64,000 bases of DNA from Ferruginibacter sp. (GCA_043736415.1 JAYTCO010000280.1:557-64556), one strand, 5' to 3'. Counted from the stretch's first letter, positions 16,465 to 35,415 are shown. Program-made: numbers and translations. Notes: a model not told the origin generated them from the letters alone.

Positions 16465-17523
16465 TTAATTGAGTAAATGTGATAATTTTTCTTCGTTGAG
16501 AATGATGATATTCCCTTCCTTAATATCAACTAATTTTTCTGTTCTAAAATCGCTGAGCGTTCGTATTAGGGATTCGGTCGCAGTACCTGCAATGCTAGCG
16601 AGGCACTCTCGGCTTATTGCAATTTCAAAATTATCAACATTTTCCTTCCTGTATTTTTTTTGTAAAAGCATTAAAGCTTCTGCAACTTTTTTGCGGAGCG
16701 AATTATAGGCAAGTCCCAGCAACTGATCTTCTTTTTCAGAAATATTTTTTGCAAGCAATTGAATAAATTTCCTTGCTACCTGCACATTGTTGTTTAATAA
16801 TTCATCAAAATCTTCTTTAGGAATAATGGCAAGCGAAGTCTCTTCCATGGTCTCAGTTGTATCTCTGTAAACAGTTTCTTCCAGCATGGCAATATATCCA
16901 AAAAAATCGCCCTGGCTGTACAATTCGGTTACCAGTTCTTTACCGTCATTATTGGTTTTAAAGGCTTTTACTTTTCCGCTTACCACATAATATAATTTGT
17001 TGGGATGGTTTCCTTCAGCATAAATTATTTGTTTCTTTTTATATTTATTTATGTTTCTGTCTTCGGCCAAAGTGCTAAGCTCATTTTTACCAAACGATGC
17101 CTGCATCAGCGTATTAAGCCCTTCTATTGAAGGGTTAAGCTGTTGCCGCAGCAATTCATTTTTTTTTAATCGGCTGTTAACTGCATTTAATAATTCCGTA
17201 CCGTCAAATGGTTTTGTAATATAATCATCTGCACCAGATTCCATACCTTTTCTAAAATCGTTGCGCTCTGTTTTTGCAGTAAGAAAAATAAAGGGTGTAT
17301 TTTTTATTGTTTCATTTTTTTGTACCGCATGTAATACACCGTAACCATCAAGCACAGGCATCATAATATCGCAAATAATCAAATCCGGCATGTGCTGCAA
17401 TGCCATTTCCACACCAATTTTTCCATTGGCAGCAGTTATTACTTTGTAGTTTGACAGCTCTAATATTTCAGCAGTGTTTTCCCGTATGAGGTCATTGTCT
17501 TCAATCAGTAATATCTTTTTCAT
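16465..17523 (-). CDS. Hybrid response regulator: CheY-like receiver + cNMP-binding-like domain + CRP/FNR-type HTH
   Basis: The receiver has KILLIEDN, PDLIICDIMMP (phospho-Asp) and YITKPF. The beta-barrel has IIYAEGNHPNKLYYVVSGKVK....G.E. The C-terminal HTH ISRECLASIAGTATESLIRTLSDF has the E-x3-R recognition pair. Confidence 0.85.
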   Translation of the reverse strand: MKKILLIEDNDLIRENTAEILELSNYKVITAANGKIGVEMALQHMPDLIICDIMMPVLDGYGVLHAVQKNETIKNTPFIFLTAKTERNDFRKGMESGADDYITKPFDGTELLNAVNSRLKKNELLRQQLNPSIEGLNTLMQASFGKNELSTLAEDRNINKYKKKQIIYAEGNHPNKLYYVVSGKVKAFKTNNDGKELVTELYSQGDFFGYIAMLEETVYRDTTETMEETSLAIIPKEDFDELLNNNVQVARKFIQLLAKNISEKEDQLLGLAYNSLRKKVAEALMLLQKKYRKENVDNFEIAISRECLASIAGTATESLIRTLSDFRTEKLVDIKEGNIIILNEEKLSHLLN

Positions 17524-17528
17524 ACAGT

Positions 17529-18737
17529 TTATTTTGTGCTGAATGTTATTTTAAACTCCGTACCTTTTTCCAGTTCACTCAAGCATTCTACAGTACCATT
17601 CATAAGCTCTGCATATTTTGCTACTATGTGTAACCCCAGGCCTGTTCCCTGTATATTTCCGGCGTTTGCACCTCTAAAAAACCGCTCCATTAAATGTTTC
17701 TGATCATCTTTTGAAATACCCATACCTAAATCTTTTACAGACAGTATTAAATGCGCTGCTGTATGAATTGTATTTATTTCAATTGTACTTCCCTCCGGTG
17801 AAAACTTGCTTGCGTTGGAAATTAAGTTCATAATAATGTGCTTTACCAGCGATGTATCCATTTCAACATTTTCGTCCCCCGTATGAGTGTATTGTATCTG
17901 CTGGTTTTTTTGCAGATTATTTTTAATCTCTTCCATTACCGAAACAATATGTTCGTGAATATTAAATTCAGAAACCCTTACCGGTATTTTACCTTCTTCA
18001 ATTTTGCCAACACTTAAAAAATCATTTAAAATATCCGTAAGCATATTTACTGATGAAACTATTCGTTGCAAATGTTTTTCCCGCTTGGGCTGATGTTCTG
18101 TAGTAGTATATTTTTCAATTAAATAAGAGGAAGATAAAACAGTGCTGAGTGGTGTGCGAAATTCATGGGATGCCATTGATACAAAACGTGATTTTAATTC
18201 ACTCAATTCTTTTTCTTTTTCAAGCGATCTGGAAAGTTCTTCTTTAGATTTTTCAAGCTGGTGCATAGCATCTGTAAGTTCTTTTGTTCTTTGCTCAACA
18301 GTTGCTTCCAGATCATCATTTAATTTTATAATTTCTGCTTCTGCATTTTTTCTGGTAGACGTATCACTTATAAATGCAATTACATTTTTATCGCCATCTT
18401 TTTCATAATTACCTAAGCTCACTTCTACCTGAAATTCCCTACCGTCTTTTTTTACACCGAACAGATCCATACCATTACCCATAGACCGGCTTTTTGGATT
18501 GTGTGTATAATTTTCCCGGTGATCATTGTGTTTGTGGTGGTACCGTTGCGGTATTAATATCTCTATCGGTTTATCAATTATTTCTTCAATTTTATAACAA
18601 AAAAGATTAAGTGCAAATGGGTTTACAGATAGAATTATACCTTTGCTGTTTACTACCACAATACCCATGGAAGCATGGTTAAAAAGTGCTTCATAACGAT
18701 AAGACTGATTAAAATTATTTTGTTCAGTAGCGGGCAT
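17529..18737 (-). CDS. PAS-domain sensor histidine kinase (FixL-like PAS core)
   Basis: The PAS domain has ILIPQRYHHKHNDHRENY...GVKKDGREFQVEVSLG. H-box SHEFRTPL, N-box NLISNASKFSP and G-boxes DLGMGI / GTGLGL are present. It ends 5 nt before the regulator gene. Confidence 0.85.
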   Translation of the reverse strand: MPATEQNNFNQSYRYEALFNHASMGIVVVNSKGIILSVNPFALNLFCYKIEEIIDKPIEILIPQRYHHKHNDHRENYTHNPKSRSMGNGMDLFGVKKDGREFQVEVSLGNYEKDGDKNVIAFISDTSTRKNAEAEIIKLNDDLEATVEQRTKELTDAMHQLEKSKEELSRSLEKEKELSELKSRFVSMASHEFRTPLSTVLSSSYLIEKYTTTEHQPKREKHLQRIVSSVNMLTDILNDFLSVGKIEEGKIPVRVSEFNIHEHIVSVMEEIKNNLQKNQQIQYTHTGDENVEMDTSLVKHIIMNLISNASKFSPEGSTIEINTIHTAAHLILSVKDLGMGISKDDQKHLMERFFRGANAGNIQGTGLGLHIVAKYAELMNGTVECLSELEKGTEFKITFSTK

Positions 18738-18843
18738 GTGTAAATGTAAATGAAGCCAGGGGATAAGCGTGTTTTAATAAACAAGTTAAGTGTTAATGAA
18801 TGTTACGTATTAAAAGATCATTACTTAAAAATTACTGACTATT

Positions 18844-19011
18844 CTATTTTGTGTCTTCAATTTCTATATCAGTTTCACCATGTCTAATGGTCGGAGAATC
18901 ATTTTCTAATTGTCTTTCAAAATTTTTTCTATCTCTATTATTACGGATAATGGTAAACACAATTAATGCAACTACTGCCACACTCACCATAAATATTAAT
19001 AAAATTTTCAT
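18844..19011 (-). CDS. Possible 55-aa single-TM protein
   Basis: My own translation gives MKILLIFMVSVAVVALIVFTIIRNNRDRKNFERQLENDSPTIRHGETDIEIEDTK. It is below the ORF-track cutoff, lies between trxA and the kinase gene, and has no homology support. Confidence 0.3.
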   Translation of the reverse strand: MKILLIFMVSVAVVALIVFTIIRNNRDRKNFERQLENDSPTIRHGETDIEIEDTK

Positions 19012-19048
19012 AGTTTATAATTTGTCTTAAAAGTTTTAGTTATCAAAA

Positions 19049-19351
19049 TTATAATGCATTTTTTTCTAAAACCTGCATTATTTGTTTTGTTGTTAATACG
19101 CCGGATTGACGCCATTTTAATTGGCCTTTTTTAAAAAGTATTAAAGTGGGCACACCCTGTATCTGGTAAGCAGATGCTGCTTGTGGGCTTTTATCAATGT
19201 CTATTTTTAAAATGGTTAATTTATCTCCCATTTTAAGTTTCAACTCTTCCAGAATAGGTTTCATCATTTTACAGGGACCGCACCATTCTGCAAAAAAATC
19301 TACAAGGGTAGGTTTATCGCTATTAATTATTTCTGAAAATTTATTTGCCAT
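19049..19351 (-). CDS. trxA: Thioredoxin
   Basis: 100 aa with the WCGPCK active site and typical thioredoxin fold pattern. It starts 9 nt after the ATPase gene. Confidence 0.85.
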
Positions 19352-19360: not shown

Positions 19361-21868
19361 TTAAGAAGTTAAAACCTTGTTTCTTTTTTTCCATTTTACT
19401 GCCTCATACCATATTACGCTTAAAAACCCTGTAACAATACTTATTAATAAGTGCATAAAACTTAAATATTCAAATTTAAAAAACAGCGCCAAGGGTTTTA
19501 TGTAAATCAACATTATAACCATTGCAATAGTTATGCTAATTATAAGCAGTACCAGATTATTTTTATATTTTAAAGTTGTAAAAAACGAATAGAAAAACGA
19601 ACGGTTTACAAGCGTTAAAAAAATATTAGCCGAAATTAAAACAGTGAAAACCATTGTCCGGGTTATTGCTTCATTAAAGCTATGTTGTACAGCATACTGA
19701 TATATTATTAACGTACCGGCGGTTATTATTAAACCCTGTAAAATACTTGTCGATAATTCTTTCCAGTTAAAAAAAGTATTGGTAAATGGTCTTGGTTTTT
19801 GCTGCATGGTATTTTTCTCCATAGGTTCATTTTCATAAATGATGGAGCATGTTGGGCCCATAATTAATTCTAAAAAAATAATATGTACCGGTGAAAATAT
19901 ATTTGGATAGACCCAACCCAAAGCCAGCGGAACAAATACGGTAAGCACAATAGGAACATGAATGGAGATAATGTACTGAATAGCTTTTTTAAGATTTGCA
20001 TAAATTTTTCTACCCATGGCAACCGCATCTATCATTCTTGCTAAATCGTCGTCTACCAAAATAAGTGAAGCAGCCTGTTTGGCAATTTCTGTCCCTTTTT
20101 TGCCCATGGCAATACCAATATGAGCAGCTTTTAATGCAGGTCCGTCATTTACGCCATCACCCGTCATTGCTACAATTGCATTATTGGCTTTTAATGCATT
20201 TATAATTTTTAATTTTGCATCAGGAAACATTCGGGTAAAAATATTTGTGTTAGCTACTGTTTCTTTTAAATCAGCATCGCTCAGTTTCATTAAATCATCT
20301 CCACTGATGCTTTTATCGTACCCTTTAAATGCAATTTGTTTTGCAATAGCAGATGTGGTTGCAGCATTATCGCCTGTTATAATCTTTACAGCAATACCCG
20401 CACTGTAAAAACTTTCCATTACAGTTTTAATATTTTCTTTTGGTGGATCGTAAAAACCTACAAGCCCTTTAAAAATAAATTTGTATTCCTGCTGCGTTGC
20501 CAGGAAATTATTTCCTTCAAAAATTGCTTCTCCTACAGCCAATACCCGATATCCATCTGTGGTTATTATTTTAATTGCTTCTTCAATCTGTTGCTTTTCA
20601 TTTTGGGTAAGGTTGGCAATATTCATTAATGCTTCGGGTGCACCCTTTGCAGCTATAATACGTATGCCGGAATTATTCTCAAAAATATGCGTCATCATTG
20701 GTGGCTTACCACCCAAAGGATATTCGTGAACCATTTTATAATCTGCCCGTTCATCAACCTTTATTATTTTTTGATATGCATTGTGCAACGCAATTTCCAT
20801 AGGGTCAAATGCAATTGGTTCACTAGCCCACATCGCTATTGATATTAACTTTTTCTCTTCATCTTCAACAATATTTTCTGCTGCAGCAATTTTATTTGTA
20901 GCCAGCACAAAAACTTTTGCAAGGCTCATTTTATTTTCTGTAATAGTTCCGGTTTTATCTGTACAAATTACGGTAGCGCTACCCAGGGTTTCCACAGTTT
21001 TCATTTGCTTTACTACAATACCCAGCTTCATTAACCTCCATGCACCCAGCGCCATAAATGTGGTAAACGCTACAGGTATTTCTTCAGGCAAAATACTCAT
21101 GGCAAGCGTTAGCGCTTTTAATAAACTATCAAGTACATTGTAAGATTGCAAATAATTTACGACCCACACAATTAAAAAAATAACGGCGCCGGCGATAATC
21201 ATTTTTTTTACAAAATTATTTATCTGCAATTCCAGCGGTGTTTTTTCTTCCTTAATATCTTCCAGGCTTTTGCCGATTTTTCCTAAACGGGTTTCATTGC
21301 CAATGGCTGTAATGTTTGCCAATGCTAAACCACTTGCTACAGTCGTACCCAAGTAAACAATATTATCAGCTGTACTTTTATCTTTAATAACAGCAAAAGA
21401 TTCGCCCGTTAGAATAGATTCATTTACAGAAAAATCATTGGACTGTATTATCTCGCCATCTGCAGATATTGATGTTCCTTCTTCTACCATCAGGCAGTCA
21501 CCAATTACGAGTTCTTCACTTTTTATTTCTGTTACAGCAGCATTTCTAATTACTTTACAATGTGGCTCTGTAAATTTTTTTAATTTCTCTAATGCATTTC
21601 TGCTTCTTGAATTTTGGTACAGGGAAATTGCTGAAACTAACATAATAGCAGACAGCAAAAAAATTCCATCTCCAATATCTCCGGTAAAAAAATAAATAGA
21701 AGTAGCTACCAGTAACAGAATAAGCATTGGTTCTTTTAATAAACTTTTTAATACTTCTAAAAATCCATTTTCTTTCTTGTATGTTAATATATTATAACCA
21801 TTTTTCTTTCTTGAAATACTAACCTCTTCATCTGTCAAACCTTTTATATTAAAATTATTTTCAGACAT
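19361..21868 (-). CDS. Cation-translocating P-type ATPase, P2 (Ca2+/Mg2+-type, CtpF-like)
   Basis: 835 aa with TGES, CTDKTGTITENKM, MTGDGVNDGPALK and 10 TM-like segments. Confidence 0.85.
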   Translation of the reverse strand: MSENNFNIKGLTDEEVSISRKKNGYNILTYKKENGFLEVLKSLLKEPMLILLLVATSIYFFTGDIGDGIFLLSAIMLVSAISLYQNSRSRNALEKLKKFTEPHCKVIRNAAVTEIKSEELVIGDCLMVEEGTSISADGEIIQSNDFSVNESILTGESFAVIKDKSTADNIVYLGTTVASGLALANITAIGNETRLGKIGKSLEDIKEEKTPLELQINNFVKKMIIAGAVIFLIVWVVNYLQSYNVLDSLLKALTLAMSILPEEIPVAFTTFMALGAWRLMKLGIVVKQMKTVETLGSATVICTDKTGTITENKMSLAKVFVLATNKIAAAENIVEDEEKKLISIAMWASEPIAFDPMEIALHNAYQKIIKVDERADYKMVHEYPLGGKPPMMTHIFENNSGIRIIAAKGAPEALMNIANLTQNEKQQIEEAIKIITTDGYRVLAVGEAIFEGNNFLATQQEYKFIFKGLVGFYDPPKENIKTVMESFYSAGIAVKIITGDNAATTSAIAKQIAFKGYDKSISGDDLMKLSDADLKETVANTNIFTRMFPDAKLKIINALKANNAIVAMTGDGVNDGPALKAAHIGIAMGKKGTEIAKQAASLILVDDDLARMIDAVAMGRKIYANLKKAIQYIISIHVPIVLTVFVPLALGWVYPNIFSPVHIIFLELIMGPTCSIIYENEPMEKNTMQQKPRPFTNTFFNWKELSTSILQGLIITAGTLIIYQYAVQHSFNEAITRTMVFTVLISANIFLTLVNRSFFYSFFTTLKYKNNLVLLIISITIAMVIMLIYIKPLALFFKFEYLSFMHLLISIVTGFLSVIWYEAVKWKKRNKVLTS

Positions 21869-21934: not shown

Positions 21935-22768
21935 TCAATAACTGCAAAGTGATTTTATTTCTGACAGTATATTTGAAATTCGGGTTATGGAGATGCTTAT
22001 GTCATGCAATAATGCTTCCCTTTTTAAAAGTTCTTTACACAAAACAATTCCTTCCATTAATATTGTTTCTTTTTCTTTATTTGTTAAGGATGTAAGGCAT
22101 GTAATTGGATATAAACCGGACTCATCTATTAAATTACGCAGGCTTTTATTGGCAGGATAATCCCAGCTTAATAAACTTAACCCTTCACAAACACCATATT
22201 TTACTGCGTCAGATGAGAATTTGGTATTGGTAACAACACAGCATTTTAAAGGTTTATGAGATGTTTTTTGCCAGTTGTTTTGTACGTCTCTGTACCGAGA
22301 ATGCACATAGAGCGGTATTTTTACATTGCTTACAATGCCAAGACTGTTATGAAATTTGCATTCGGTTAATAAAAAATGATCCTCATTTTCTGCCAATACA
22401 TCTATCTCATGCGTTACACATGCACCTTCTAAAAAAAGCTGCGTTTGTACTTTGTATCCCTGCCATTCAAATATAGCAGCAATGTATTTTTCAAATGGAA
22501 AACCTGATGGACCTAAAGCCATGATAGCTCTCTTTAAATTATAACGGCCGGCATTACTTTTTAAGTCTTTCTTAAGCATATTAAATGCTGCCTGGTATAT
22601 TTTTTTTGTAGAAATGCCATCATATAATATTGATTCTATTTCAAATAAAATATTTTCTACTGTATTTTCATCTGCTCCAGATTTTTTTAGAGATGCTCTC
22701 AATTTCTCTGATGAAAATATATCCTGAACACCGGAAGCTTTTGTGATGGTAATATTTTTATTTTTCAT
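21935..22768 (-). CDS. ATP-cone domain fused to PD-(D/E)xK (Mrr/restriction-endonuclease-like) domain
   Basis: The N-terminal ~90 aa (ITKASGVQDIFSSEKLRASLKKSGA......I...IE..L.DGISTKKIY) fit an ATP-cone. The core HEIDVLAE...FLLTECKF gives a D...ExK nuclease-fold motif. Confidence 0.6.
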   Translation of the reverse strand: MKNKNITITKASGVQDIFSSEKLRASLKKSGADENTVENILFEIESILYDGISTKKIYQAAFNMLKKDLKSNAGRYNLKRAIMALGPSGFPFEKYIAAIFEWQGYKVQTQLFLEGACVTHEIDVLAENEDHFLLTECKFHNSLGIVSNVKIPLYVHSRYRDVQNNWQKTSHKPLKCCVVTNTKFSSDAVKYGVCEGLSLLSWDYPANKSLRNLIDESGLYPITCLTSLTNKEKETILMEGIVLCKELLKREALLHDISISITRISNILSEIKSLCSY

Positions 22769-22791: not shown

Positions 22792-23865
22792 TTATGCAAC
22801 AGTAATTTCTTTTTCCAGATAAACATCCTGTACAGCATTCAGCAGTGCAATACCTTCTTTCATTGGTTTTTGAAATGCTTTTCTTCCTGAAATTAAACCC
22901 GTACCACCTGCACGTTTGTTTATGATGGCTGTAATTACGGCTTCCTTTAAATCTGATTCACCTTTAGATTCTCCACCTGAATTAATTAACCCTGAACGAC
23001 CCATAAAACAATTTAATACCTGGTATCTGCATAAATCAATTGGGTTGGCAGAACTTAATTCGGAATACATCCGCTTATCTGTTTTACCGTAAGTTATACC
23101 GGCAGAATTTAAAAAAGTAAAACCACCATTATTCACAGGTAATTTTTGTTTTATTATATCTGCCTGTATTGTTACACCTAAATAATTTGCCTGCCCGGTA
23201 AGGTCGGCAGATAAATGATAATCTGCCTCTGTACTTTTAAATGCATTGTTGCGCAGGTAACACCACAATATAGTTGCCATGCCAAGCGAATGTGCTTCTT
23301 CAAAAAGCCTTGCAACTTCTACTATTTGCCTGCCCGATTCTTCCGATCCAAAATATATGGTTGCACCAACTGCTTTGGCACCAAGGTTCCATGCATCTTT
23401 TACAGATGCAAACTGTATCTGGTCAAATTTGTTTGGATAAGTAAGCAGTTCATTGTGGTTTAATTTTACAATAAAAGGAATTTTATGAGCATATTTTCTA
23501 CTCAACATTGCCAGGCCACCAACGGTACTTGCTACAGCATTACAGCCGCCTTCTATGGCAAGTTTAATAATATTTTCAGGATCAAAATAAAGCGGATTAG
23601 CTGCAAAAGATGCACCTGCACTGTGTTCTACACCCTGGTCCACAGGCAGAATTGATAAATACCCTGTACCTGCAAGTGTGCCGTTGTTATACAATGAGCT
23701 AAGGTTGCAAAGTGTCTGGTTATTTCTGTTAGATAAACTGATTACATCATCAATAAAAGTAGGAGAAGGAAGATGAAGCATTTCTTTAGAAACCGTTTTA
23801 CAGGTATGCGTAAGCAATTCTTCGTTTTCTTTTCCAATTAAAGCGGTTATGTTTTCGTGTGTCAT
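22792..23865 (-). CDS. fbaB: Class I fructose-bisphosphate aldolase (FbaB/DhnA type)
   Basis: Long identical stretches to E. coli FbaB as I remember it: [53 protein letters not shown]. Confidence 0.9.
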
Positions 23866-23919
23866 AATACTAATTTTTATACTGATTTATTTTATTGAAA
23901 AGATTTATTAGCACTTAAT

Positions 23920-26633: not shown

Positions 26634-27467
26634 TTATGATTTATGAAACACCAATAAGGGAACTTTAGCATCGAACGAATACTCTGCAGATTTGCTTGAT
26701 AAAAATATTTTCTCAAACCAGTTTCTGTTTTGTTCCGTAAACATAACCATAACAGAAGGCTGAATACTTTTTACGGCAACTTCAATATCTGAAACCAAAG
26801 ATTCATTAGGATTTCTTGGAGTTGTTTGAAAATTTACATTATAATTTGTAATTGCTTTAATAGCCCTGTCTGTTAATGCTAAATCTTCTTTTTTATCAGG
26901 TGCAGATGTAAGGTGAAGTAATTCTACTGTTGCTTTTAACGGCTCTGCAAATGCTATTACTTTTAAAATTTCGTTTTCATAATTAAGCAAATCTGAAACA
27001 TAAAGTATACTTGTTATAGTACGCTTTTCATAATTATGGGGAATGGCTATAACGGGAACTTCAGAATTATTTATCAGGTTAGCTGTATTTGTACCAAGCA
27101 GCCTTTTTACAGTTCCGGCACCTCTGGTACTTATACAAATAAAATCAAAATTATTTTCAGCCGCATATTCTCTTATGCAACTATCTGCAAATACAGAACT
27201 TTTTATAACACATTTATATGGTGCAGCAGTTTCATTTATTCCTTTATAAGTTTCTTCAACAAAAGCATTTAATTTCTCTTCAATTTTTTCTGCTTCATCT
27301 TTTTCATAACCACCTACTCTTACTTCATTCCACGCAGTAGGAGTTAAGATATGATAAGTATTAAAAAAAGTGAGTTCATAATCATTTTGTGAAGCCAGTT
27401 GAATTGCAAAATATAAACCGGCTTTTGAGTTTTCAGAAAAATCGGTTGTAACAAGTATTTTTTTCAT
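26634..27467 (-). CDS. Tandem-domain universal stress protein
   Basis: 277 aa with two UspA-like halves (MKKILVTTDFS...; G..RLLGTNTANLINNSEVPVIAIP). Confidence 0.8.
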   Translation of the reverse strand: MKKILVTTDFSENSKAGLYFAIQLASQNDYELTFFNTYHILTPTAWNEVRVGGYEKDEAEKIEEKLNAFVEETYKGINETAAPYKCVIKSSVFADSCIREYAAENNFDFICISTRGAGTVKRLLGTNTANLINNSEVPVIAIPHNYEKRTITSILYVSDLLNYENEILKVIAFAEPLKATVELLHLTSAPDKKEDLALTDRAIKAITNYNVNFQTTPRNPNESLVSDIEVAVKSIQPSVMVMFTEQNRNWFEKIFLSSKSAEYSFDAKVPLLVFHKS

Positions 27468-27539: not shown

Positions 27540-28475
27540 TTAATTTGTCGCTTTATTCATTAGACCATATATTTTTTCTACATCTTTTAAATTGCACAAT
27601 TCTGTACCTGTATTCATAGTGGCTGCTGTGCCACATGCAACTCCGTATTTTACTGCCTCGGCAATGTTTTTTTGTTTTGACAAAAAATAAACAATACCCG
27701 CCAACATGCTGTCACCTGCACCAACAGTGCTCTTTCTAATTACAGCAGGTGGTTCAATTGTTTTTATTAAATCATTGGTTACAAACAAAGCTCCTTGTGC
27801 ACCCATAGATATTACCACTACCTCGCATTTACCTTCTGCAATAATTTCTTTAGCAGCGGCTTCTATTTCATGTTGTTTCAAATGTGTTTTACCCGAAAGA
27901 AAACACAGTTCACCAAGATTTGGTTTAAGCAGGTAAACGCCTTCATTTACAGCTTCCCTTAAAGCTTCACCGGATGTATCTACAACAAATTTTGCATTTT
28001 TATTCTTTGCAATTTTTGCCAGCTGAGCAAAAATATTTAAAGGTACCCCGGGCGGTAAACTTCCGCTTGCTACAATAAAAGAAATATCCTGAATTTCTTC
28101 AACTGCTTTTAGGCATTGCATCCATTCTACATCACTAAGGTTTGTGCCCGGCATACCAAAACGGTATTGTGCATTTTCAGCTTCATCAAGCACTATTATA
28201 TTTTCTCTTGTTTCATTTTGTACTTCAATAATTACTGCATGTATATTTTCAACTTCCAGTAAATGATTAAAATATTTTCCCGTATATCCGCCTGACGGAA
28301 AAATAGCTGTAGCATCTCCACCCAATTTCTTTATTGCTCTTGCTACATTAATTCCACCACCACCCGGCTCAAGTTTTGGCGCAGCACAATGCAGCTTTTT
28401 ATCAGGCAGTAATTTTTTTACTGATGTGGTTTTATCAATACATGGGCTGAATGTAACGGTAACGATGGTTGACAT
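27540..28475 (-). CDS. pfkB: PfkB-family sugar kinase, 6-phosphofructokinase II type
   Basis: FEPGGGGINVARAIKKLGGDATAIFPSGG and the C-terminal GAGDSMLAG closely match E. coli PfkB (Pfk-2) motifs. Confidence 0.75.
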   Translation of the reverse strand: MSTIVTVTFSPCIDKTTSVKKLLPDKKLHCAAPKLEPGGGGINVARAIKKLGGDATAIFPSGGYTGKYFNHLLEVENIHAVIIEVQNETRENIIVLDEAENAQYRFGMPGTNLSDVEWMQCLKAVEEIQDISFIVASGSLPPGVPLNIFAQLAKIAKNKNAKFVVDTSGEALREAVNEGVYLLKPNLGELCFLSGKTHLKQHEIEAAAKEIIAEGKCEVVVISMGAQGALFVTNDLIKTIEPPAVIRKSTVGAGDSMLAGIVYFLSKQKNIAEAVKYGVACGTAATMNTGTELCNLKDVEKIYGLMNKATN

Positions 28476-28483: not shown

Positions 28484-29515
28484 TTAGCTGTTTCCATTTC
28501 CGGATATTTCTTCTTCTACCAAAATATTTGTAAGCTCATTTTTACAAGTGTTGTTTTTTTGGAAGCAATCAATATTTTCAAAAGTAGTATCCGCAATATT
28601 TGTAAGTGCCTGCACCGTAGCAAAAGCCTGGTGCGGAGTTATCAAGACATTCGGCATAGAAAGTAATTTTTTCAACAAATCGTCCTTCATTTCTTTCCCT
28701 GTAAGGTCAGAGAAGAAAATACCTCTTTCATTTTCATAAACATCTGCTCCGTAATAGGCAATATTACCATTTTGTAATCCCTCAATTACATCTACCGTAT
28801 TTACGCATGCCCCACGCCCCGTATTGATGAGCATTGTACCCGGTTTCATTAAATCTATCAGCTTTTTATTAATTAAATATTTTGTTTCGGGTGTAGATGA
28901 AGTATGAATGCTAATGATATCTGCTGAGGCACAAAGCGTTTCCTTATCCAAATATTCAACACCAAATTTTTCTTTCAATTGATCATTTTCGTTTGGGTCA
29001 CAACACAAAATTTTGCAGCCAAAGCCATACATAATTTTTACCAGTACACTGCCAATAATACCCACGCCAATAATGCCTATGGTTTTACCATGCAGATCGT
29101 AACCAATTAAATTATCTGTAGTAAAATTTTGTTGGTGAACCTGCTTTTCTGCAATAATGGTTTTTCTGTTTAGCGCCTGTATGAGCGCTATTACATGTTC
29201 TGCAATAGCATAAGGTGAATATGCAGGCACATTTGTAACTTTAATACCTACAGCGTTTGCTTTTTCAATATCAATATTGTCATGCCCTGCCGCTCTTGTT
29301 GTAATGCATTTCACATCAATTTCATAAAGTAATTTTATCACCTCTGCACTTGCATCATCGCCGGTAAAAATGCTGATGATCTCAAAACCGGTAGCAAGAT
29401 GAGCAGTTTCCAAACACAACGGCTTTTTTAAAAATGTAATTTCATAATTATTTGTGTTTGCCTTTTCCAGGTAAGGTTGCTCGTATGGTTTTGTACTGAA
29501 GAAGAGTGTTTTCAT
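28484..29515 (-). CDS. ldhA: D-lactate dehydrogenase / D-isomer-specific 2-hydroxyacid dehydrogenase
   Basis: The N-terminal pattern FFSTKPYEQPYL...NVPAYSPYAIAEH parallels E. coli LdhA. An NAD-binding GIIGVGIIG motif is present. Confidence 0.75.
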   Translation of the reverse strand: MKTLFFSTKPYEQPYLEKANTNNYEITFLKKPLCLETAHLATGFEIISIFTGDDASAEVIKLLYEIDVKCITTRAAGHDNIDIEKANAVGIKVTNVPAYSPYAIAEHVIALIQALNRKTIIAEKQVHQQNFTTDNLIGYDLHGKTIGIIGVGIIGSVLVKIMYGFGCKILCCDPNENDQLKEKFGVEYLDKETLCASADIISIHTSSTPETKYLINKKLIDLMKPGTMLINTGRGACVNTVDVIEGLQNGNIAYYGADVYENERGIFFSDLTGKEMKDDLLKKLLSMPNVLITPHQAFATVQALTNIADTTFENIDCFQKNNTCKNELTNILVEEEISGNGNS

Positions 29516-29623: not shown

Positions 29624-30439
29624 TTATCTTAATAAAAGCACAGGTACATGGCTGTGTAAAACCATTTGCTTGGTATGACTTCTGCTGATAATTTTTTCCC
29701 ACAGGGTGTGATGCTTTCGCATAACAATTAATAAATCAATATTATTTTTTTCTGCAAAATCGACTACACTTTTATCAATGTGTTCGCCCTCAACAAAATG
29801 GAATTCTACTTTGTGTGTTTCAAACATCTTATTAATTTTATTTGAAAATAAAATAAAATCTTCGTTAAACTCCTCTTCTTTTGCTGCATTTATAACATGA
29901 ATATTTGAATTAAAATCGTTTGCCAGCAATTTAATTTCAGCAATAAAATCTTCATCAATTTCATTTTTAAAATCATAAGCAATTCCAATGTTTTTAAAAG
30001 CTGAAAAACTTGCATTATACGGAACTGTTATAAGCGGCCATGTGCAGTTTTTTAATGCGTCGGCTGTATGTCCGCCAAACATAATTCGTTCAGCTGCTGT
30101 TTTACCCTGGCTACCCATTATTAAAAAGTATGGTTTTACGCTGTCACAAATTTCATTTAACTCATTTGCAAAAACACCCAACTTTACCTGCGTTAAAATA
30201 TTAAGTTTAGTAGCTGTACTTTTTAAAAGTTCATTTTTAAAAGTTTCTATATCATTTTCAGCAATAGCTTTTAAATCAACAATATTCATAACAATAATTG
30301 GATCTTCAAAGTTTGGCATTAATTGATATACATTAAAAAGTAAAACATCTGCATTTATGATCTGCGCCATTTTTAAGGCATACATTGATGCGTTTAACGC
30401 ATTTGAAGAAAAATCTGTTGCTACAATAATTGTTTTCAT
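29624..30439 (-). CDS. Tandem-domain universal stress protein (paralog of 33901..34719)
   Basis: 271 aa. MKTIIVATDFS..ALNA..YA.K.A and the C-terminal HTKQ.VLH.HVPV are shared with the 33901 gene. Confidence 0.8.
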   Translation of the reverse strand: MKTIIVATDFSSNALNASMYALKMAQIINADVLLFNVYQLMPNFEDPIIVMNIVDLKAIAENDIETFKNELLKSTATKLNILTQVKLGVFANELNEICDSVKPYFLIMGSQGKTAAERIMFGGHTADALKNCTWPLITVPYNASFSAFKNIGIAYDFKNEIDEDFIAEIKLLANDFNSNIHVINAAKEEEFNEDFILFSNKINKMFETHKVEFHFVEGEHIDKSVVDFAEKNNIDLLIVMRKHHTLWEKIISRSHTKQMVLHSHVPVLLLR

Positions 30440-30497
30440 TTACTTACTTTATTTAGTGAAGGTTTGAATACTGATTTTTTACCATCAGTCATTTCAG

Positions 30498-31220
30498 TTA
30501 TTTATAAATTTTTCTTTTCAATTGTATCATTTTCAATTTTAAGGTATCATATATCAAGCCGATAAATAATACCAAGGTTGCGAGGATTAAAACTTTCAAT
30601 TGTAATTTTTGATATAACAGGCCAGCTGAAATGCCTCCAATAAAAAAGAAAATAATAATTGTTAACCGCAATTTTATGGAGGCATATAATTTTATTCTTT
30701 GAAGTGCTTTTTTATAAAAGAAAAGTTGAGATAACTCGATGCCTAAATCTGTAAAAAGGCCTGTTAAATGCGTAGTACGTACTGTAGCATCAGATATTTT
30801 AGTGACCAAAGAATTTTGTAACCCCATTGCAAACAATAAAATACAAACAATAAAATTGGCATAGCTTTCAATTAAGTTTTTTCCTAAGCTGGCAACAAAC
30901 AAAAGCAACACTATTTCAATAACAATTGGAAGAATATAAGTTTTATTTTCATTTTTTAAAGCAACGTATTCCACCAGTAAACTTGAGATAAAAGCACCTA
31001 AAAAGAAAAATAAAATATATAAAAAGTAAACCAATCCTTTCCAAAAATGCACCTGAAACACCTCATCTACAAAATAAGCAAAATGCCCCGTAACATTTGT
31101 GGTAAGCTGTTTCACAGCTAAAAATCCGGCAACGTTTACTATTCCTGCTACAAAAGAAAGTAATGATGCAATTTGTAAATTGTGTTTTACCGTTCTTGTT
31201 TTTCCTTGATGCCTAAACAT
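30498..31220 (-). CDS. DUF1275 (YoaK) family membrane protein
   Basis: 240 aa, 6 TM, with VTGHF and TTHLTG motifs typical of YoaK/DUF1275. Confidence 0.65.
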   Translation of the reverse strand: MFRHQGKTRTVKHNLQIASLLSFVAGIVNVAGFLAVKQLTTNVTGHFAYFVDEVFQVHFWKGLVYFLYILFFFLGAFISSLLVEYVALKNENKTYILPIVIEIVLLLFVASLGKNLIESYANFIVCILLFAMGLQNSLVTKISDATVRTTHLTGLFTDLGIELSQLFFYKKALQRIKLYASIKLRLTIIIFFFIGGISAGLLYQKLQLKVLILATLVLFIGLIYDTLKLKMIQLKRKIYK

Positions 31221-31524: not shown

Positions 31525-32616
31525 TTAACCTTCTTTCACGTTGTACTCAATACTTTTCAACGTAAATTTTCCGTAAACAAATTCACCCTCAGGATAATGC
31601 CAAACTGTTTCTCCATACTGCATAATATTGCGCCCATCAATTTGAGCATAATTTTTTACAGGAGTAGAAAAACCATATTCCTTCATTTCGTTAACAGCAT
31701 ATCTGTCATCAGAAATAAAATTTATCAGTTGCCCCTGCTCATTAAAATATAGAATTGCGTTTATTTTATTTACGCCATTTGTAAAAGTCGCCTTGGCAGA
31801 TAAACTATCAATCGCTGTCCATAGAATTCTTTTGTCAATTAACGAAGCGGGTGCCATAAGGCACATATCGTTAAATACTGTTACAGTTTCGGCTTTATTT
31901 AATTCCGTACCTTTTATGCTTACTACATTAAATAAGCCCAACGGTTTTATTTGCATGGTTGCCCTTTCATTTTGGTAACAGTGATAACCCGGTACAGGAA
32001 CACCATAAATCTTTGCTTTCATAAAAAACAATCTGGTTGGGTCATCAAAAAAATTATACTGTACAGAAGTAAATTTGAAAAAATCCTTTCCCTTTTCCCT
32101 CATTTCGCCGTCAAAAATAATTCTCATATTTTTTACTTTCGGTTTATTAACTGCTCCTGAATAACGAATATATTTTTGAACCGGAAATGGCAGAGAAACA
32201 ATATCTGCATCTATCAATAAATCATTGGTTACAAAATTTGTTTCGGCCATATGGTTATCAATATCTTTCTTAAAGTTCATTTCAAAGTGAAAGGTTGCCC
32301 AAGAAGAAATGGTAACAACAAGAATAATAATATTTAAAACAGTTCCAAATTTTGCATCATGCCAAACCGAAATAATTAGTACCTGAGATATTACAACTGC
32401 AGCAAAGGCAACATATACCCAACCTTCTTTTTTCAATAAACATAGTATAGCTGCTGTTACAAAAAGAAGAGCTGTAAGCAGCCAAAAAATGCCATTTGGT
32501 TTAGAAATATCTTTTGTTAGCTGAGGAATATTTGCATAATTAAATGCTTTTGCAAAACCCATTGTATGGAGTAGTCCATGAGCAAACAAAATGATGGGTA
32601 GAAGGTATTTAAGCAT
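31525..32616 (-). CDS. Membrane-anchored uncharacterised protein (4 N-terminal TM + ~250-aa soluble domain)
   Basis: 363 aa. The start overlaps the Acg-like gene stop by 8 nt, suggesting translational coupling. I cannot assign a family with confidence. Confidence 0.5.
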   Translation of the reverse strand: MLKYLLPIILFAHGLLHTMGFAKAFNYANIPQLTKDISKPNGIFWLLTALLFVTAAILCLLKKEGWVYVAFAAVVISQVLIISVWHDAKFGTVLNIIILVVTISSWATFHFEMNFKKDIDNHMAETNFVTNDLLIDADIVSLPFPVQKYIRYSGAVNKPKVKNMRIIFDGEMREKGKDFFKFTSVQYNFFDDPTRLFFMKAKIYGVPVPGYHCYQNERATMQIKPLGLFNVVSIKGTELNKAETVTVFNDMCLMAPASLIDKRILWTAIDSLSAKATFTNGVNKINAILYFNEQGQLINFISDDRYAVNEMKEYGFSTPVKNYAQIDGRNIMQYGETVWHYPEGEFVYGKFTLKSIEYNVKEG

Positions 32617-33736
32617 AATTCTTTTTTACAAATGACTCTATCGAACGCCTTAATGACACAGGATTTGGGTAATTTTTTAAATACCCTGTTCGTAAAATAA
32701 ACTGCACAGGATCGTTAATCCCCATAGAGGTATTTAAAATTTGATTTGTTTTTGCTTCTTCAATTATCTGCGTCATTGGGTGAATGGCAATATTTCTCCC
32801 TCTTACTTTTAACCATAGCCTTTGCAATCTTTTACCGGTTTCTAATAATGTTTCTAACGAATTATCTTTGCTTGTTATAAGTAACCATCCTGCTGATGCA
32901 TTCGAAACTTCCTTCACCACTTTATCAATACTTTGCTCCCTAAAACTTTTTTTCATCACATCGCTTTTGCCATAAAAATTTCGCAAATACCAGCCAGGTA
33001 TACCTTCTATTTCCATACCTGCAAGTGTGAGCCCGTCTAAATATTTGGCTGCATCTTTATCGGAGAATCTTATCCAATCTGCTAATTCGCTTTGTGCTGC
33101 ATCTCTGTACGATTGAATCCTGTTGGCTTCAATGGTTTGTTCATTTAGCCATACATGTTCTTTTGAGCTATTAGGAATGTAATGAATGAAATCATTTTCA
33201 TCGTTAAGTAAATATGAAATGTCTTCTCTTTTAAGTATATCGCTTAAATAATTTGAACGAACAGTGCGACGTTGCTTTATTTGTTCAATATCATATTTGA
33301 TAATCCTTGTTGCTTTAGTAAGTTTTAGGTCAACTACATTTTCATTTTGATTATTTGTGGCTAAAATATTATACTGATAATTGTAACCAAAGCTTTTTGC
33401 AGCGTATTCTAAATTTTGTAAAAAAGCTCCGATAGATAAAATGGTTTCTCGTTGTGTAGGGTCAACACCGGGTAACCAGCGGCTTTTATCATTGCAAATA
33501 ATCCAATGGTATGGCTCCAAATATTTTACAAACCATGGTTGTGTGTTGTGCCCGCTTGGCGCAAGGGAAGCAAGTGCCAATATATCTCTTTCATGCGGCT
33601 TAAAAGGAAATTCAATTGTAAAATCTTGTTTTATATCTGCTCTTACCAAATTATTTTTATCGCTAAAGCCATAGTAAGTTGCGCCGCCAATAACGATAGC
33701 AGATCCTGTAAAAGCTAAAAATTTTCGCCTCGTCAT
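32609..33736 (-). CDS. Acg-type (tandem) nitroreductase-family FMN protein with twin-arginine signal
   Basis: Start set at MTRRKFLAFTGSAIVIGGATYYG, a Tat-like RRxFL motif. APSGHNTQPW is a nitroreductase motif, and the ~375-aa size fits Acg-family proteins. The longer listed start (33868) would add an AT-rich low-complexity leader that covers the promoter box. Confidence 0.7.
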   Translation of the reverse strand: MTRRKFLAFTGSAIVIGGATYYGFSDKNNLVRADIKQDFTIEFPFKPHERDILALASLAPSGHNTQPWFVKYLEPYHWIICNDKSRWLPGVDPTQRETILSIGAFLQNLEYAAKSFGYNYQYNILATNNQNENVVDLKLTKATRIIKYDIEQIKQRRTVRSNYLSDILKREDISYLLNDENDFIHYIPNSSKEHVWLNEQTIEANRIQSYRDAAQSELADWIRFSDKDAAKYLDGLTLAGMEIEGIPGWYLRNFYGKSDVMKKSFREQSIDKVVKEVSNASAGWLLITSKDNSLETLLETGKRLQRLWLKVRGRNIAIHPMTQIIEEAKTNQILNTSMGINDPVQFILRTGYLKNYPNPVSLRRSIESFVKKNYA

Positions 33737-33807: not shown

Positions 33808-33819
33808 TGATCAAAATCA
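33808..33819. promoter_or_regulatory. FNR/FixK-like box aTGATcaaaATCAg upstream of the Acg-like gene
   Basis: Perfect TGAT-N4-ATCA. Its centre lies about 78 bp upstream of ATG 33736. Confidence 0.45.
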
Positions 33820-33900
33820 GTAAGCAGTATGACAGCTGTCTACCTACTTTAAAAAAGTAAACAAACAAGTTATTATCCTTGCACTTCTAAAGTGACGCAG

Positions 33901-34719
33901 TTATTTAGTTAATGACATTACAGGAACATGGCAATGAAGTACCAGTTGTTTGGTGTGACTTTTATGAAATAGTCTTTGAAACATATTGTAATGTTTAGGC
34001 ATTACAATTAGCAGGTCTACATTGTTGGATTCCACAAACTTTAAAATAGCTTCTTCAGTTTGATGTGAAGTTAAAAAATGATATTTTATTATAAAAGGAG
34101 TAAAGGCATTTTCAAGCTCGCTCGCTAATAATGTAAAATGCTCATTAAATTCCTCTTCCTGTACTGCATTTAAAATATCGATAGAGGCATTAAAATCCCC
34201 GGCAATTAATTTTATATCGGCAATTAAATTTTCTTTTATTACTTCCTCAAAATCGTATGCAATACCTATTTTTTTAATGGCTGAAAAAGTAAACGTAGAT
34301 GGTACTGTAATTATCGGCCATGCAAAATGATTAATGGTTTTACCTGCATGAGAGCCCATTAAAAAATGTTCAGCAGCGGTTTTACCCTGGCTGCCCATTA
34401 TTACTGCATAGGGATTTAATCGTTCGCATATTAAAATCAACTCATCATTAAAAACGCCTAATCTTACTTCGGTCGTAATATTAAAACTAAAATTGGATTG
34501 CTGAACAAGATCAGATTTAAAATGTAATAACTGTGTTTCAGCAGATTTTTTTAAATCATCTACATTAATATCAATTATAATTTCTCCGTAATTAGGCAGA
34601 ACCTCAAAAACGTTAAAAAGTAAAATATCAGCACCTACAGTTTCAGCTATTTTTACAGCATATTTGGCAGCATTTAAAGCAATAGGCGAAAAGTCGGTTG
34701 CCACTATAATGGTTTTCAT
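33901..34719 (-). CDS. Tandem-domain universal stress protein
   Basis: 272 aa, a clear paralog of 29624..30439. Confidence 0.8.
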   Translation of the reverse strand: MKTIIVATDFSPIALNAAKYAVKIAETVGADILLFNVFEVLPNYGEIIIDINVDDLKKSAETQLLHFKSDLVQQSNFSFNITTEVRLGVFNDELILICERLNPYAVIMGSQGKTAAEHFLMGSHAGKTINHFAWPIITVPSTFTFSAIKKIGIAYDFEEVIKENLIADIKLIAGDFNASIDILNAVQEEEFNEHFTLLASELENAFTPFIIKYHFLTSHQTEEAILKFVESNNVDLLIVMPKHYNMFQRLFHKSHTKQLVLHCHVPVMSLTK

Positions 34720-34794
34720 CTTTTCAATATTTAAAATTTAAAATTGAGCTTTTGACAGGAAATAAAATTACTCATAATAACCGGCTTTAAAAGC

Positions 34795-34806
34795 TGATAA
34801 TAATCA
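34795..34806. promoter_or_regulatory. FNR/FixK-like box cTGATaataATCAa upstream of the USP gene
   Basis: Perfect TGAT-N4-ATCA. Its centre lies about 82 bp upstream of ATG 34719. Confidence 0.45.
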
Positions 34807-34857
34807 ATAATAACAACGACAAAGCTGATAGTATTAAAGGACTATTAATTTGCCATC

Positions 34858-35415
34858 TTACAAATCTGAAGTATCTGCTTTTACGCACCACAATAATTCT
34901 TTAATAAAACCGGCCGCTAATTTATCCGTTGCTTCTTTGTTAACAGCATTGCCGGTTTCGTCATAATTGTCCTGCACTTTTGCTACAGAAAACATTTCTG
35001 TAATAGTCCATGCCTTTATTTTCCAAAGAGTAAACTGCAAAGAAATAAGACACTGTGAGCCTGCAAAAGGTCCTGCAGAAACGGTTGCAATAGCTATTGG
35101 TTTATGCCGCCACTCTTCCAATAAAAGATCAATTGCATTTTTTAAACTTGCGGGATAACCACCATTATATTCTGGCGTTACAATTATAATTCCTTCACTG
35201 TCTTTTATTTTTTCTGCAAACTCCAGCGTTTTAAGCAATGGCGAAGCTTGAAATTGTAACCGTTCTTCAAAAATGGGGAAATTATATTCCATTAAATCAA
35301 GCATTTGGGTTTCTGCAAGATTATTGTCTTTAAGATATTTTTCAAAATACAAAGCAACACGATGGCTGTTGCGCCCTGTTCTTACACTGGCTGAAATAAT
35401 TGAAATACGTGGCAT
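34858..35415 (-). CDS. NAD(P)H-dependent FMN reductase family protein
   Basis: 185 aa. ISIISASVRTGRNSHRVA and IIVTPEYNGGYP are typical FMN_red motifs. Confidence 0.75.
   Translation of the reverse strand: MPRISIISASVRTGRNSHRVALYFEKYLKDNNLAETQMLDLMEYNFPIFEERLQFQASPLLKTLEFAEKIKDSEGIIIVTPEYNGGYPASLKNAIDLLLEEWRHKPIAIATVSAGPFAGSQCLISLQFTLWKIKAWTITEMFSVAKVQDNYDETGNAVNKEATDKLAAGFIKELLWCVKADTSDL

Follow-up and report, generated by a model that had tools for sequence, protein, structure and literature searches.

We have analysed a 64,000-nucleotide stretch of DNA from Ferruginibacter sp. (GCA_043736415.1, JAYTCO010000280.1:557-64556), referred to below as the window, with respect to a 19-kb gene array at positions 16465-35415 that ends in a sensor histidine kinase and a hybrid response regulator. 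The original prediction for this DNA had listed 16 minus-strand genes, or 17 with a 55-aa open reading frame (ORF), mostly separated by fewer than 110 bp. The ORF listing agrees, with 17 consecutive co-directional ORFs on the minus strand and, within this interval, no ORF of gene size and comparable length on the plus strand, and so do the measured intergenic gaps, which from the FMN reductase to the regulator are 138, 32, -8, 304, 58, 108, 8, 72, 11, 54, 23, 66, 9, 37, 106 and 5 bp. The co-directional run as such is ordinary operon-type organisation; what is non-random is the gene content.

The proteins of the array were assigned by Pfam and NCBIfam profile searches, with scores compared to the curated cutoffs, and nearly all of the domain calls made earlier were confirmed in this way. 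The upstream part, block A in our proposal, would start with an NADPH-dependent FMN reductase family protein (34858-35415, on the minus strand like all array genes; Pfam FMN_red, 1.7e-32), the first gene of the upstream block. It would continue with a tandem universal stress protein (USP), USP1 (33901-34719), which has two Pfam Usp stretches and carries the ATP-binding motif G-x2-G-x9-G-S in its first domain, and would be completed by a Tat-Acg protein with its DUF6544 partner. The Acg-family FMN-binding oxidoreductase (32609-33736) scored 230.3 bits against NF047509 (cutoff 199) and covered profile positions 2-318 of 319. Its start is ATG 33736 and not TTG 33868, which gives a protein of 375 aa, the length also given by public gene callers, and widens the gap to USP1 from 32 to 164 bp. 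The corrected N-terminus, MTRRKFL, is a twin-arginine (Tat-type) motif, and the RR pair was kept in six of six Bacteroidota homologues examined. The DUF6544 membrane protein (31525-32616; Pfam DUF6544, 6.9e-68) has N-terminal hydrophobic segments; its gene has an 8-nt overlap with the end of Acg, covering the Acg stop, and is found again beside Acg and ATPase genes in other Bacteroidota. The conserved twin-arginine motif, together with a DUF6544 gene often following, suggests that the Acg protein of Bacteroidota is periplasmic or membrane-anchored, unlike the mycobacterial protein. As a separate observation, the Acg homologues of the window and of related loci L064, L068, L071, L072 and L077 share the N-terminal pattern (T/N)RR(K/R)F(L/F), often with DUF6544 as the next gene. 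A 304-bp gap separates DUF6544 from a DUF1275 (YoaK-like) membrane protein (30498-31220; Pfam DUF1275, 8e-39), the gene for which was not found in the related loci examined.

Block B would begin with a second tandem USP, USP2 (29624-30439; Pfam Usp), the first gene of the conserved downstream block, and continue with a D-lactate-type dehydrogenase and a PfkB protein. The former, a D-isomer-specific 2-hydroxyacid dehydrogenase (28484-29515) that is D-lactate dehydrogenase-like by Pfam and NCBIfam, is nearest to D-LDH/VanH, yet falls under every NCBIfam equivalog cutoff. The latter is a PfkB-family hexose-phosphate kinase of the Pfk-2/1-PFK subfamily (27540-28475; TIGR03168, 309 bits against a cutoff of 216), which reached 319 bits with the Pfk-2 model NF007632 and stays below its cutoff of 353. 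The tandem-length USP3 (26634-27467; Pfam Usp) lies directly upstream of a 900-aa cation ATPase of P2A type (SERCA/PMR1-like; 23920-26622), recognised by family profiles and by its PEGLP and DKTGT motifs.

The block would proceed with a class I fructose-bisphosphate aldolase of FbaB type (22792-23865; NF006707, 631 bits against a cutoff of 327) and a 277-aa AF1548-like protein with a restriction-endonuclease fold (21935-22768), residues 95-274 of which matched PDB 1Y88 with an E-value of 3e-29. The N-terminal approximately 90 aa of this protein look ATP-cone-like by eye but gave no Pfam match, and the ATP-cone call made earlier is thus unconfirmed. In Ferruginibacter loci the AF1548-like gene travels with FbaB and the second ATPase. 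This second P-type ATPase (835 aa, 19361-21868) has DKTGT, lacks PEGLP and passes the generic family cutoff only; weak matches between the two ATPase paralogues are the only repeats in the array. The remaining members of block B would be a thioredoxin (19049-19351; TIGR01068, 113 bits against a cutoff of 97), a small membrane protein, the kinase and the regulator. The small protein (18844-19011), previously listed merely as a 55-aa ORF, is a conserved protein with a single transmembrane segment: a homologue occupies the same position in related locus L082, the motif FTIIRNN(R/K)(D/E)R is common to both, and L001 has a 96% identical copy.

The soluble sensor histidine kinase (17529-18737) consists of a FixL/FG214-like PAS domain followed by HisKA and HATPase; by Pfam it has this single PAS and no GAF domain. 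In the PDB the PAS domain is matched best by the heme O2/redox sensors RmFixL (1d06, E 5e-12), FG214 (10jx) and EcDos/DosP. Importantly, His70 of the kinase aligns with the proximal histidine of these proteins (FixL His194, EcDos His77, FG214 His156), and it is invariant in all 39 kinases with this PAS subtype, among 58 orthologues, within the motif LIPxR(F/Y)xxxHxxxRxxY...PxxRxMG. FG214 is a recently described PAS protein with heme b, in which His156 is proximal and His175/Met172 are distal (bioRxiv 10.64898/2026.03.15.711900), and Met86 of the kinase aligns with Met172.

The response regulator (16465-17523) is a hybrid of a REC domain with the phospho-acceptor Asp52 (context LIICDIMMP), a cNMP_binding-like domain without the RS pair that contacts cAMP in CRP, and HTH_Crp_2. 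It lacks the N-terminal [4Fe-4S] cysteine cluster of FNR because the receiver domain occupies the N-terminal position. It is the only CRP/FNR-family or REC gene within the window, and the combination REC, cNMP_binding and HTH_Crp_2 is present in all of the best 120 of more than 8000 homologues, each 350-361 aa long.

Related loci were collected in two sets. For the first, one genome per species was scanned with the 900-aa ATPase, and the loci were gene-called and clustered (80-81 loci); the second, a metagenome scan with the regulator, provided 80 further loci with 58-94% identity, and 84 regulator loci entered the box analyses described below. The neighbours of the kinase/regulator pair were counted in 35 loci of at least 12 kb, after clustering. 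The PAS kinase accompanies the regulator in 34 of these 35 loci, and a small protein, of the same family as a 124-aa protein of the window, is convergent with the regulator in 27; cbb3 oxidase genes are found in 15, HSP20 in 10, USPs in 8, and at least one effector family resembling those of the mycobacterial DosR regulon in 24. The usual order near cbb3 genes is kinase, regulator, small protein, (HSP20), TauE-like, FixH, CcoG, CcoP, CcoNO and P-type ATPase. The link to oxygen claimed in the original prediction is supported by these results, with a PAS domain that aligns with heme-based O2 sensors, a proximal histidine that is kept and a sensor pair that is repeatedly found beside cbb3 genes. 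In the window a gene for a 63-aa YgaP-like transmembrane protein (16272-16463, plus strand) lies between the 124-aa and regulator genes; it is found again in seven related loci.

A palindromic DNA box is enriched at these loci. In the window, TGAT-N4-ATCA occurs exactly six times against 1.37 expected, a number reached in 0 of 100 shuffles, and all six sites fall within 4.4-34.8 kb. The 84 regulator loci contain 111 exact sites; intergenic DNA, which makes up 10.6% of their sequence, holds 63 of them (P about 1e-32). TGAT-N4-ATCA ranks first among all 4-mer palindromic dyads with gaps of 0-10 (61 observed, 3.5 expected), and ATCA-N10-TGAT, which corresponds to tandem boxes 22 bp apart, was observed 37 times against 3.5 expected. 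The same enumeration on the intergenic DNA of the window alone, a small sample, was not significant after multiple testing, and became decisive with the 84 loci. The consensus is (A/C)TGAT-N4-ATCA(T/G), in which only the 12-nt core is informative. The classical FNR box TTGAT-N4-ATCAA, with one mismatch allowed, was not enriched in the window (7 against 5.95 expected), and CTGAT-N4-ATCAG as an alternative consensus was only marginally enriched. Scans for sigma-70 promoters and intrinsic terminators remained at chance level and are uninformative for a Bacteroidota genome.

The box stands at fixed distances from the promoter. In Bacteroidota the promoter element TAnnTTTG is centred near -7, and the distance from the box centre to this element has two sharp maxima, 29 nt with 6 cases and 51 nt with 12, over a background of about 0.3 per offset. 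The boxes therefore lie near -41 and -63, which are the classical class II and upstream positions of CRP/FNR activators. The fixed 22-bp tandems and the 29/51-nt spacing, seen in L081-L163 and in the window, represent an unusually rigid activator-promoter geometry for Bacteroidota promoters.

Composite promoters, with box and -7 element at these spacings, were found in the window at five gene-proximal positions only, those of a PNPOx-like gene, a cco-like oxidase operon, the 124-aa gene, Acg and USP1; a sixth match, at 47516, is inside a coding region. Two of the five belong to the array. At USP1 the box TGATAATAATCA (34795-34806, minus strand) has its centre 30 nt upstream of the -7-like element TAATTTTA and is kept in L164 though the flanks differ. 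The box at Acg, TGATTTTGATCA (33808-33819, minus strand), starts 72 nt upstream of the corrected ATG, and the -7-like element TATTTTTA follows 29 nt downstream of its centre; the identical 12-mer precedes a YtxH...ATPase operon in L005. The other three are tandem sites on the plus strand with 22 bp between the boxes, which lie 51 and 29 nt upstream of the -7 element. That of the 124-aa gene (15643-15676; exact at 15643, two mismatches at 15665; element TAACTTTA) is conserved in L001. That of the cco-like operon (10717-10750; exact at 10717, one mismatch at 10739; element CATCTTTG) has two exact boxes 22 bp apart at the corresponding position in L082, which also has an exact box at the PNPOx-like gene, where the window has boxes with one mismatch each at 10150 and 10172 (10150-10183) and the -7-like element TAATTTTA. 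Two further exact boxes, at 4394-4405 within ackA and at 14565-14576 within a 135-aa ORF, have no -7 partner and may be chance matches or internal sites.

In the relatives, composite promoters precede members of the 124-aa family (17), HSP20 (10), CcoN/O (6), USP-like genes (4), PNPOx genes (3), USP genes (3) and regulator/kinase genes (5), and in loci of Mucilaginibacter and Saprospiraceae they stand before genes for USPs and P-type ATPases. Within the array, -7-like elements at the usual start-codon distance were found only at USP1 and Acg, both with a box, and at the dehydrogenase gene, the promoter of which has a -33-like TTTC and a -7-type element without a box. The region upstream of the FMN reductase showed neither box nor -7 element, and the gaps before USP2, USP3, FbaB, the second ATPase and the small ORF showed no -7-like element. 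The most economical reading is a transcript of its own for USP1, an Acg-DUF6544 unit that possibly extends into DUF1275-USP2, and a long unit from the dehydrogenase to the regulator. The array had initially been described as apparently wired to a CRP/FNR-type regulator; the boxes at USP1 and Acg would fit this, but the rest of the array is without a box, and only block A is demonstrably box-linked. Since block B encodes the sensor pair, the enzymes from glycolysis to lactate, the pumps and the thioredoxin would nevertheless at least be co-expressed with the sensor. As side observations, a perfect palindrome ACTGAT-N8-ATCAGT, with a spacing unlike that of the main box, lies upstream of USP2 (30457-30476), and the 9-mer AATCAGTAT is found upstream of both USP2 and FbaB (23879-23887, minus strand), is kept in L001 and occurs 3 times against 0.8 expected.

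The comparison with relatives shows that the array is made of two parts. The 900-aa ATPase has its best match (94% identity) in a metagenome-assembled genome of Ferruginibacter, a member of the Chitinophagaceae, which places the window in that genus, and the order USP-DLDH-PfkB-USP-ATPase-...-Trx-kinase-regulator, DLDH being the dehydrogenase and Trx the thioredoxin, is kept only in close Ferruginibacter relatives. For USP2, at the head of the downstream block (USP2 to response regulator), synteny was seen in L001, L007, L082, L083 and L090. Of these, L082, with a regulator 81% identical, has the shorter core USP-DLDH-PfkB-USP-ATPase-Trx-small ORF-kinase-regulator, which, just as in the window, converges with the cco-like operon and the PNPOx-like gene, and L001 has different upstream neighbours before the block. 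The variable inserts are FbaB, the AF1548-like gene and the second ATPase. The upstream block, TonB receptor-FMN reductase-USP-Acg-DUF6544, is syntenic in the near relative L164, with other genes beyond it, and FMN reductase synteny extends to L165. Because the two blocks occur separately in near relatives (L001, L082 and L164), the 19-kb array is best described, on these comparisons, as a lineage-specific juxtaposition of two separately conserved blocks and not as a conserved or transferred module. The idea of a conserved module, put forward in the original prediction, did not survive this comparison. Elsewhere in Bacteroidota only small sub-blocks recur, such as USP+ATPase and Acg+DUF6544, and the neighbourhood of the ATPase is mosaic, with a tandem USP as its commonest neighbour (27 of 81 loci). 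Mucilaginibacter loci show USP-ATPase-...-USP-ATPase-Acg-...-DUF6544, one of them also with a REC-CRP protein and PAS kinases, and Cytophagales loci add Dps, Mla and L,D-transpeptidase genes. The second commonest ATPase neighbour, in 17 of 81 loci, is an AI-2E family transporter gene, which the window has at 39738-40808 (minus strand), 4 kb upstream of the array.

An alternative reading is that there is no common programme at all, and that independent operons happen to stand head-to-tail, with the resemblance to the DosR regulon reflecting nothing but the commonness of USP, ATPase and sugar-kinase families. The separation of the two blocks in near relatives would fit, as would the lack of a box in most internal promoter regions and the coming and going of DUF1275, AF1548-like, FbaB and second ATPase genes among close relatives. 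However, the same families recur round the ATPase and regulator across Bacteroidota classes (besides the tandem USPs also Acg+DUF6544, PfkB and the dehydrogenase), USP and ATPase genes of Mucilaginibacter and Saprospiraceae have composite promoters in front of them, and the sensor pair is co-directional with block B at gaps of 5-106 bp. We regard such a chance assembly as quite unlikely.

Three genes or operons outside the array carry composite promoters. The first is a divergent C-family heme-copper oxidase operon (10870-15568, plus strand) with a CcoN-like subunit, a FixO-cytochrome c fusion and five small genes, syntenic in L082, L083 and L084. The CcoN-like subunit, encoded among the oxidase genes at 10870-14085 (plus strand), is 721 aa long with a 270-aa N-terminal extension and reached only 261 bits against TIGR00780, the cutoff of which is 583.15; its CcoO-like partner also falls below its cutoff. 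The cbb3 oxidase named earlier at 10.9-14.1 kb is accordingly a C-family member, but given the missed ccoN cutoff and the extension we file it only as a divergent C-family heme-copper oxidase, for which O2 and NO (nitric oxide) as substrates are indistinguishable from sequence. The second is a Pyridox_ox_2 protein (10230-10679, plus strand), a PNPOx/Nim-like split-barrel flavoprotein nearest to the Nim and PPOX families.

These two proteins bear on the question whether the locus serves a response to nitrosative stress, in which a heme-PAS kinase would sense NO while Acg, the Nim/PNPOx-like protein, the C-family enzyme, FMN reductase and thioredoxin would detoxify and repair. An oxidase so far below the ccoN cutoff, with so long an N-terminal extension, could have an NO-reductase-like role; the kinship of the PNPOx-like protein to Nim and PPOX would suit this, and the DosS/DosT kinases of Mycobacterium tuberculosis respond to NO and carbon monoxide (CO) as well as to hypoxia. 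On the other hand, the neighbouring oxidase cluster in most related loci is a canonical ccoNO-ccoP-ccoG-fixH, the window has no hcp, norVW, hmp or nitrite/nitrate reductase genes, and the genes for fermentation and glycolysis are better suited to energy limitation. A dedicated NO response appears improbable to us.

The third is the 124-aa protein (15746-16120, plus strand; start ATG 15746), which is convergent with the regulator and has a paralogue at 14885-15262 (plus strand). Neither Pfam nor NCBIfam profiles matched it, the segment WKRxLxFMQEENVHLKNRLSDVLK is nearly invariant, and AlphaFold2 predicts a three-helix bundle (pLDDT 90), for which a Foldseek search of the PDB returned only generic helical bundles. 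An assignment as hemerythrin was rejected, with only one conserved histidine and a three-helix model. No neighbour of the kinase/regulator pair is more conserved than the family of this protein, and it is this family that composite promoters precede most often. A role in the signalling circuit, as suggested by the position of the gene and by the box at its own promoter, is at present speculation.

With modest confidence, we lean towards reading the locus as an oxygen- or redox-responsive survival programme under the FixL-like kinase and the REC-CRP hybrid; membership in the box regulon is demonstrable for part of the array only. The gene identities, synteny, box enrichment and promoter geometry are direct observations, from which we infer heme binding, the signal, the protein that binds the box and the physiology as follows. 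The two-component system that ends block B would be the local counterpart of the rhizobial FixL-FixJ-FixK cascade, collapsed into two proteins. Falling O2, or NO, CO or a redox change at the heme, would cause the kinase to phosphorylate Asp52 of the regulator, which would then bind (A/C)TGAT-N4-ATCA(T/G) boxes with their centre some 41 bp upstream of where transcription begins, in many cases beside another box at about 63 bp, and activate transcription. In the window the box-dependent promoters would drive USP1, Tat-Acg-DUF6544, the divergent cbb3-like oxidase operon, the PNPOx-like flavoprotein and the 124-aa helical protein, and in relatives also HSP20, other USPs and canonical cbb3 genes. 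Block B would be read from the ordinary promoter upstream of the dehydrogenase gene and would provide, along with the sensor pair, ion pumps and a route from glycolysis to lactate. An aerobe could in this way keep its redox balance, ATP and ion gradients during oxygen shortage.

Several points weigh against this proposal. Seven of nine inter-operon regions of the array are without a box, which is found at only two of about nine, those of USP1 and Acg, and the USP-DLDH-PfkB-USP-ATPase block of L082 has no box at all. The box is assigned to the regulator by co-localisation, and another CRP/FNR protein encoded elsewhere in the genome could bind it; moreover, the recognition helix of the regulator, TESLIR, fits neither FNR nor CRP specificity residues. 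The PAS domain of the kinase is probably a heme-binding O2 sensor, a candidate assignment in which heme binding is read from the alignment. The position of the FixL distal Arg220 is Met in the kinase and that of the FG214 distal His175 is Gly, and since neither distal residue is conserved the ligand chemistry, or the signal, could differ from O2. The related loci are phylogenetically non-independent, so that the counts overstate independent events, and the single-linkage clusters merge P1B (CcoI-like) and P2 ATPases. Because the P1B enzymes, probable CcoI copper pumps, thus share a cluster with the P2 type, the ATPase co-occurrence counts are inflated.

The missing distal residues also open the way to a broader interpretation, that of a general stress island for dormancy or stationary phase that reacts to starvation, desiccation, cold or osmotic stress, and in which the PAS domain would sense redox or another ligand and low O2 would be one inducer of several. 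The related loci are indeed rich in generic stress genes (HSP20, Dps, YtxH, BON/OsmY-like, glycogen phosphorylase, FtsH and Mla), the nearest structural relative of the PAS subtype, FG214, is a redox switch and not a gas sensor, and conservation does not extend to the residue with which FixL touches bound O2. Yet the kinase/regulator pair is tightly linked to cbb3 assembly and structural genes (in the 15 of 35 long loci given above), composite promoters stand upstream of CcoN/O, and the effector set fits experimentally defined low-oxygen stimulons. We consider the broader interpretation unlikely.

The low-oxygen programme we favour resembles several known systems. The parallel drawn in the original prediction to the M. 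tuberculosis DosR regulon holds at the family level, and at that level only, for the Acg family, the tandem USPs, PfkB and the P2-type ATPase (CtpF); HSP20 in relatives of this locus and the PNPOx-like protein of the window add to the likeness. In both cases control would begin with a heme-based sensor kinase, here a candidate heme PAS. In contrast, the mycobacterial sensors DosS/DosT are heme-GAF proteins and the mycobacterial regulator is of NarL/LuxR type, whereas here we find PAS and REC-CRP. The DosR box (GGGAC-N4-GTCCC core) is absent here: matches in the window at two mismatches numbered two, against 4.0 expected, and both were inside genes. The Acg protein here has a conserved twin-arginine signal and the membrane partner DUF6544, and the genes stand in one array, unlike the mycobacterial genes, which are scattered over several loci.

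Another counterpart is the lxa locus of Burkholderia cenocepacia, a low-oxygen-activated locus of about 50 genes in an obligate aerobe (Sass et al. 2013, PMC3721108). It contains six USPs, a nitroreductase, a PfkB-type kinase, a cation ATPase, acetate kinase, Anr-like CRP/FNR regulators and a two-component system, and its overlap with the DosR regulon, as well as the motif TGA-N6-TCA, was already pointed out by its authors; induction was shown, and deletion lowers anoxic survival (PMC3721108). Each is thus a single locus that unites several USP genes with those for a nitroreductase, a kinase of PfkB type, a cation ATPase and regulators of the CRP/FNR and two-component kinds. The lxa motif has the same core as the box, which here is found at two promoters inside the array and three beside it, the other promoter regions of the array being without it. 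They differ in that lxa holds polyhydroxyalkanoate synthesis, class II ribonucleotide reductase and alpha-crystallin genes, that its regulators are separate Anr-like proteins, and that it is experimentally supported whereas the array is known from its sequence.

With the rhizobial FixL-FixJ-FixK cascade the likeness extends to the sensor, a heme-PAS histidine kinase there and a kinase with a candidate heme PAS here, and to FixK, a CRP/FNR-family regulator without an Fe-S cluster that recognises the TGAT-N4-ATCA core, as the regulator putatively does. The cbb3 genes are prime targets of the cascade, and adjacency and composite promoters provide the corresponding genomic evidence here. The core microoxic proteome of Bradyrhizobium diazoefficiens comprises USPs and a nitroreductase (FixK2 targets being the nitroreductase and two of the USPs), FixNOQP, a hexose kinase of the 1-phosphofructokinase family, phosphoketolase and a PNPOx-family protein (PMC6515984). 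In contrast to the rhizobial system there is neither a FixJ-type (LuxR-HTH) regulator nor a separate FixK; the receiver is fused to the CRP-type module, and the cascade would therefore be one step shorter. Further differences are the flanking base of the box, A/C instead of the T in the FixK box TTGAT-N4-ATCAA, the common 22-bp tandem boxes, the promoters of the Bacteroidota -7 TAnnTTTG type and the distal-pocket Arg of FixL, which is not conserved here.

Finally, the Anr regulon of Pseudomonas aeruginosa includes USPs, ackA-pta and ldhA for anaerobic survival (as summarised in PMC3721108). In that regulon, likewise, an FNR-type box drives USPs, genes for fermentative substrate-level phosphorylation and a cbb3 oxidase, in a setting of survival without growth. 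Anr differs in sensing O2 directly through its Fe-S cluster, while the CRP-type module of the regulator is without that region and is proposed to be controlled by phosphorylation. The notion that a CRP/FNR-type regulator replaces DosR for the same effectors is sound, but it is not new, such an effector set under CRP/FNR-type control being already known from the Burkholderia lxa locus and the Bradyrhizobium FixK2 regulon (PMC3721108, PMC6515984). What differs here is the phylum, the receiver-CRP fusion, the 22-bp tandem boxes, the Tat-signal Acg with DUF6544 and the conserved 124-aa partner gene. A description of such a system for Bacteroidota was not found in the literature searched, which did not cover subscription journals and so gives no proof of absence.

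The original prediction had further suggested that the array might be a horizontally shared module. Its G+C content (0.30-0.36) is like that of the flanks, and the window annotation and a repeat scan revealed no mobile-element genes or repeats flanking it. The only PDB match of Acg is M. smegmatis Acg (2YMV, 35 bits), and USP1 matched only archaeal USP structures in the PDB and no mycobacterial one, including Rv2623. With this weak Acg similarity, a USP1 without a mycobacterial match and a flank-like G+C content, recent transfer from Actinobacteria was rejected, and convergence at the family level appears to be the better reading.

If confirmed, the programme would mean that a low-oxygen persistence toolkit of USPs, Acg-type flavoproteins, PfkB, cation pumps, small heat-shock proteins and a high-affinity oxidase reaches Bacteroidota, and that it has been assembled repeatedly under differing wirings of heme sensor to regulator: mycobacteria connect GAF with NarL, Pseudomonas and Burkholderia use an Fe-S FNR, rhizobia have the chain PAS-FixJ-FixK, and here PAS would act on a REC-CRP hybrid. 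Chitinophagaceae are abundant in soils, freshwater and activated sludge, all with fluctuating oxygen. The box and its fixed promoter geometry could serve as a predictor of the response from genomes and metagenomes, and the two proteins would form a compact oxygen switch open to testing or engineering. A bolder version, which we put forward tentatively and think rather doubtful as a whole, is that aerobic Bacteroidota (Chitinophagaceae, with traces in Sphingobacteriales and Saprospiraceae) have a hypoxia-dormancy switch of their own, in which a heme-PAS kinase acts on a receiver-CRP hybrid at 22-bp-spaced tandem boxes (about -41/-63). The box-controlled 124-aa protein would be a third component that the switch requires, for instance as an adaptor or as an inhibitor in a feedback loop, and the periplasmic Tat-Acg/DUF6544 pair a membrane redox module without mycobacterial equivalent.

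Two minor observations concern the surroundings of the array and of its relatives. The window also encodes acetate kinase and phosphoketolase (ackA-xfp, 4017-7645, plus strand), which have no composite promoter and are mentioned as context only. The related locus L081 (JGI 3300005058, Ga0071082_100920) has a regulator 76% identical and a kinase with two PAS domains, and also holds genes for YtxH, a holin-like protein, dodecin, DUF2267, two HSP20 proteins, glycogen phosphorylase and FtsH, with an insertion sequence (DDE transposase) inserted among them.

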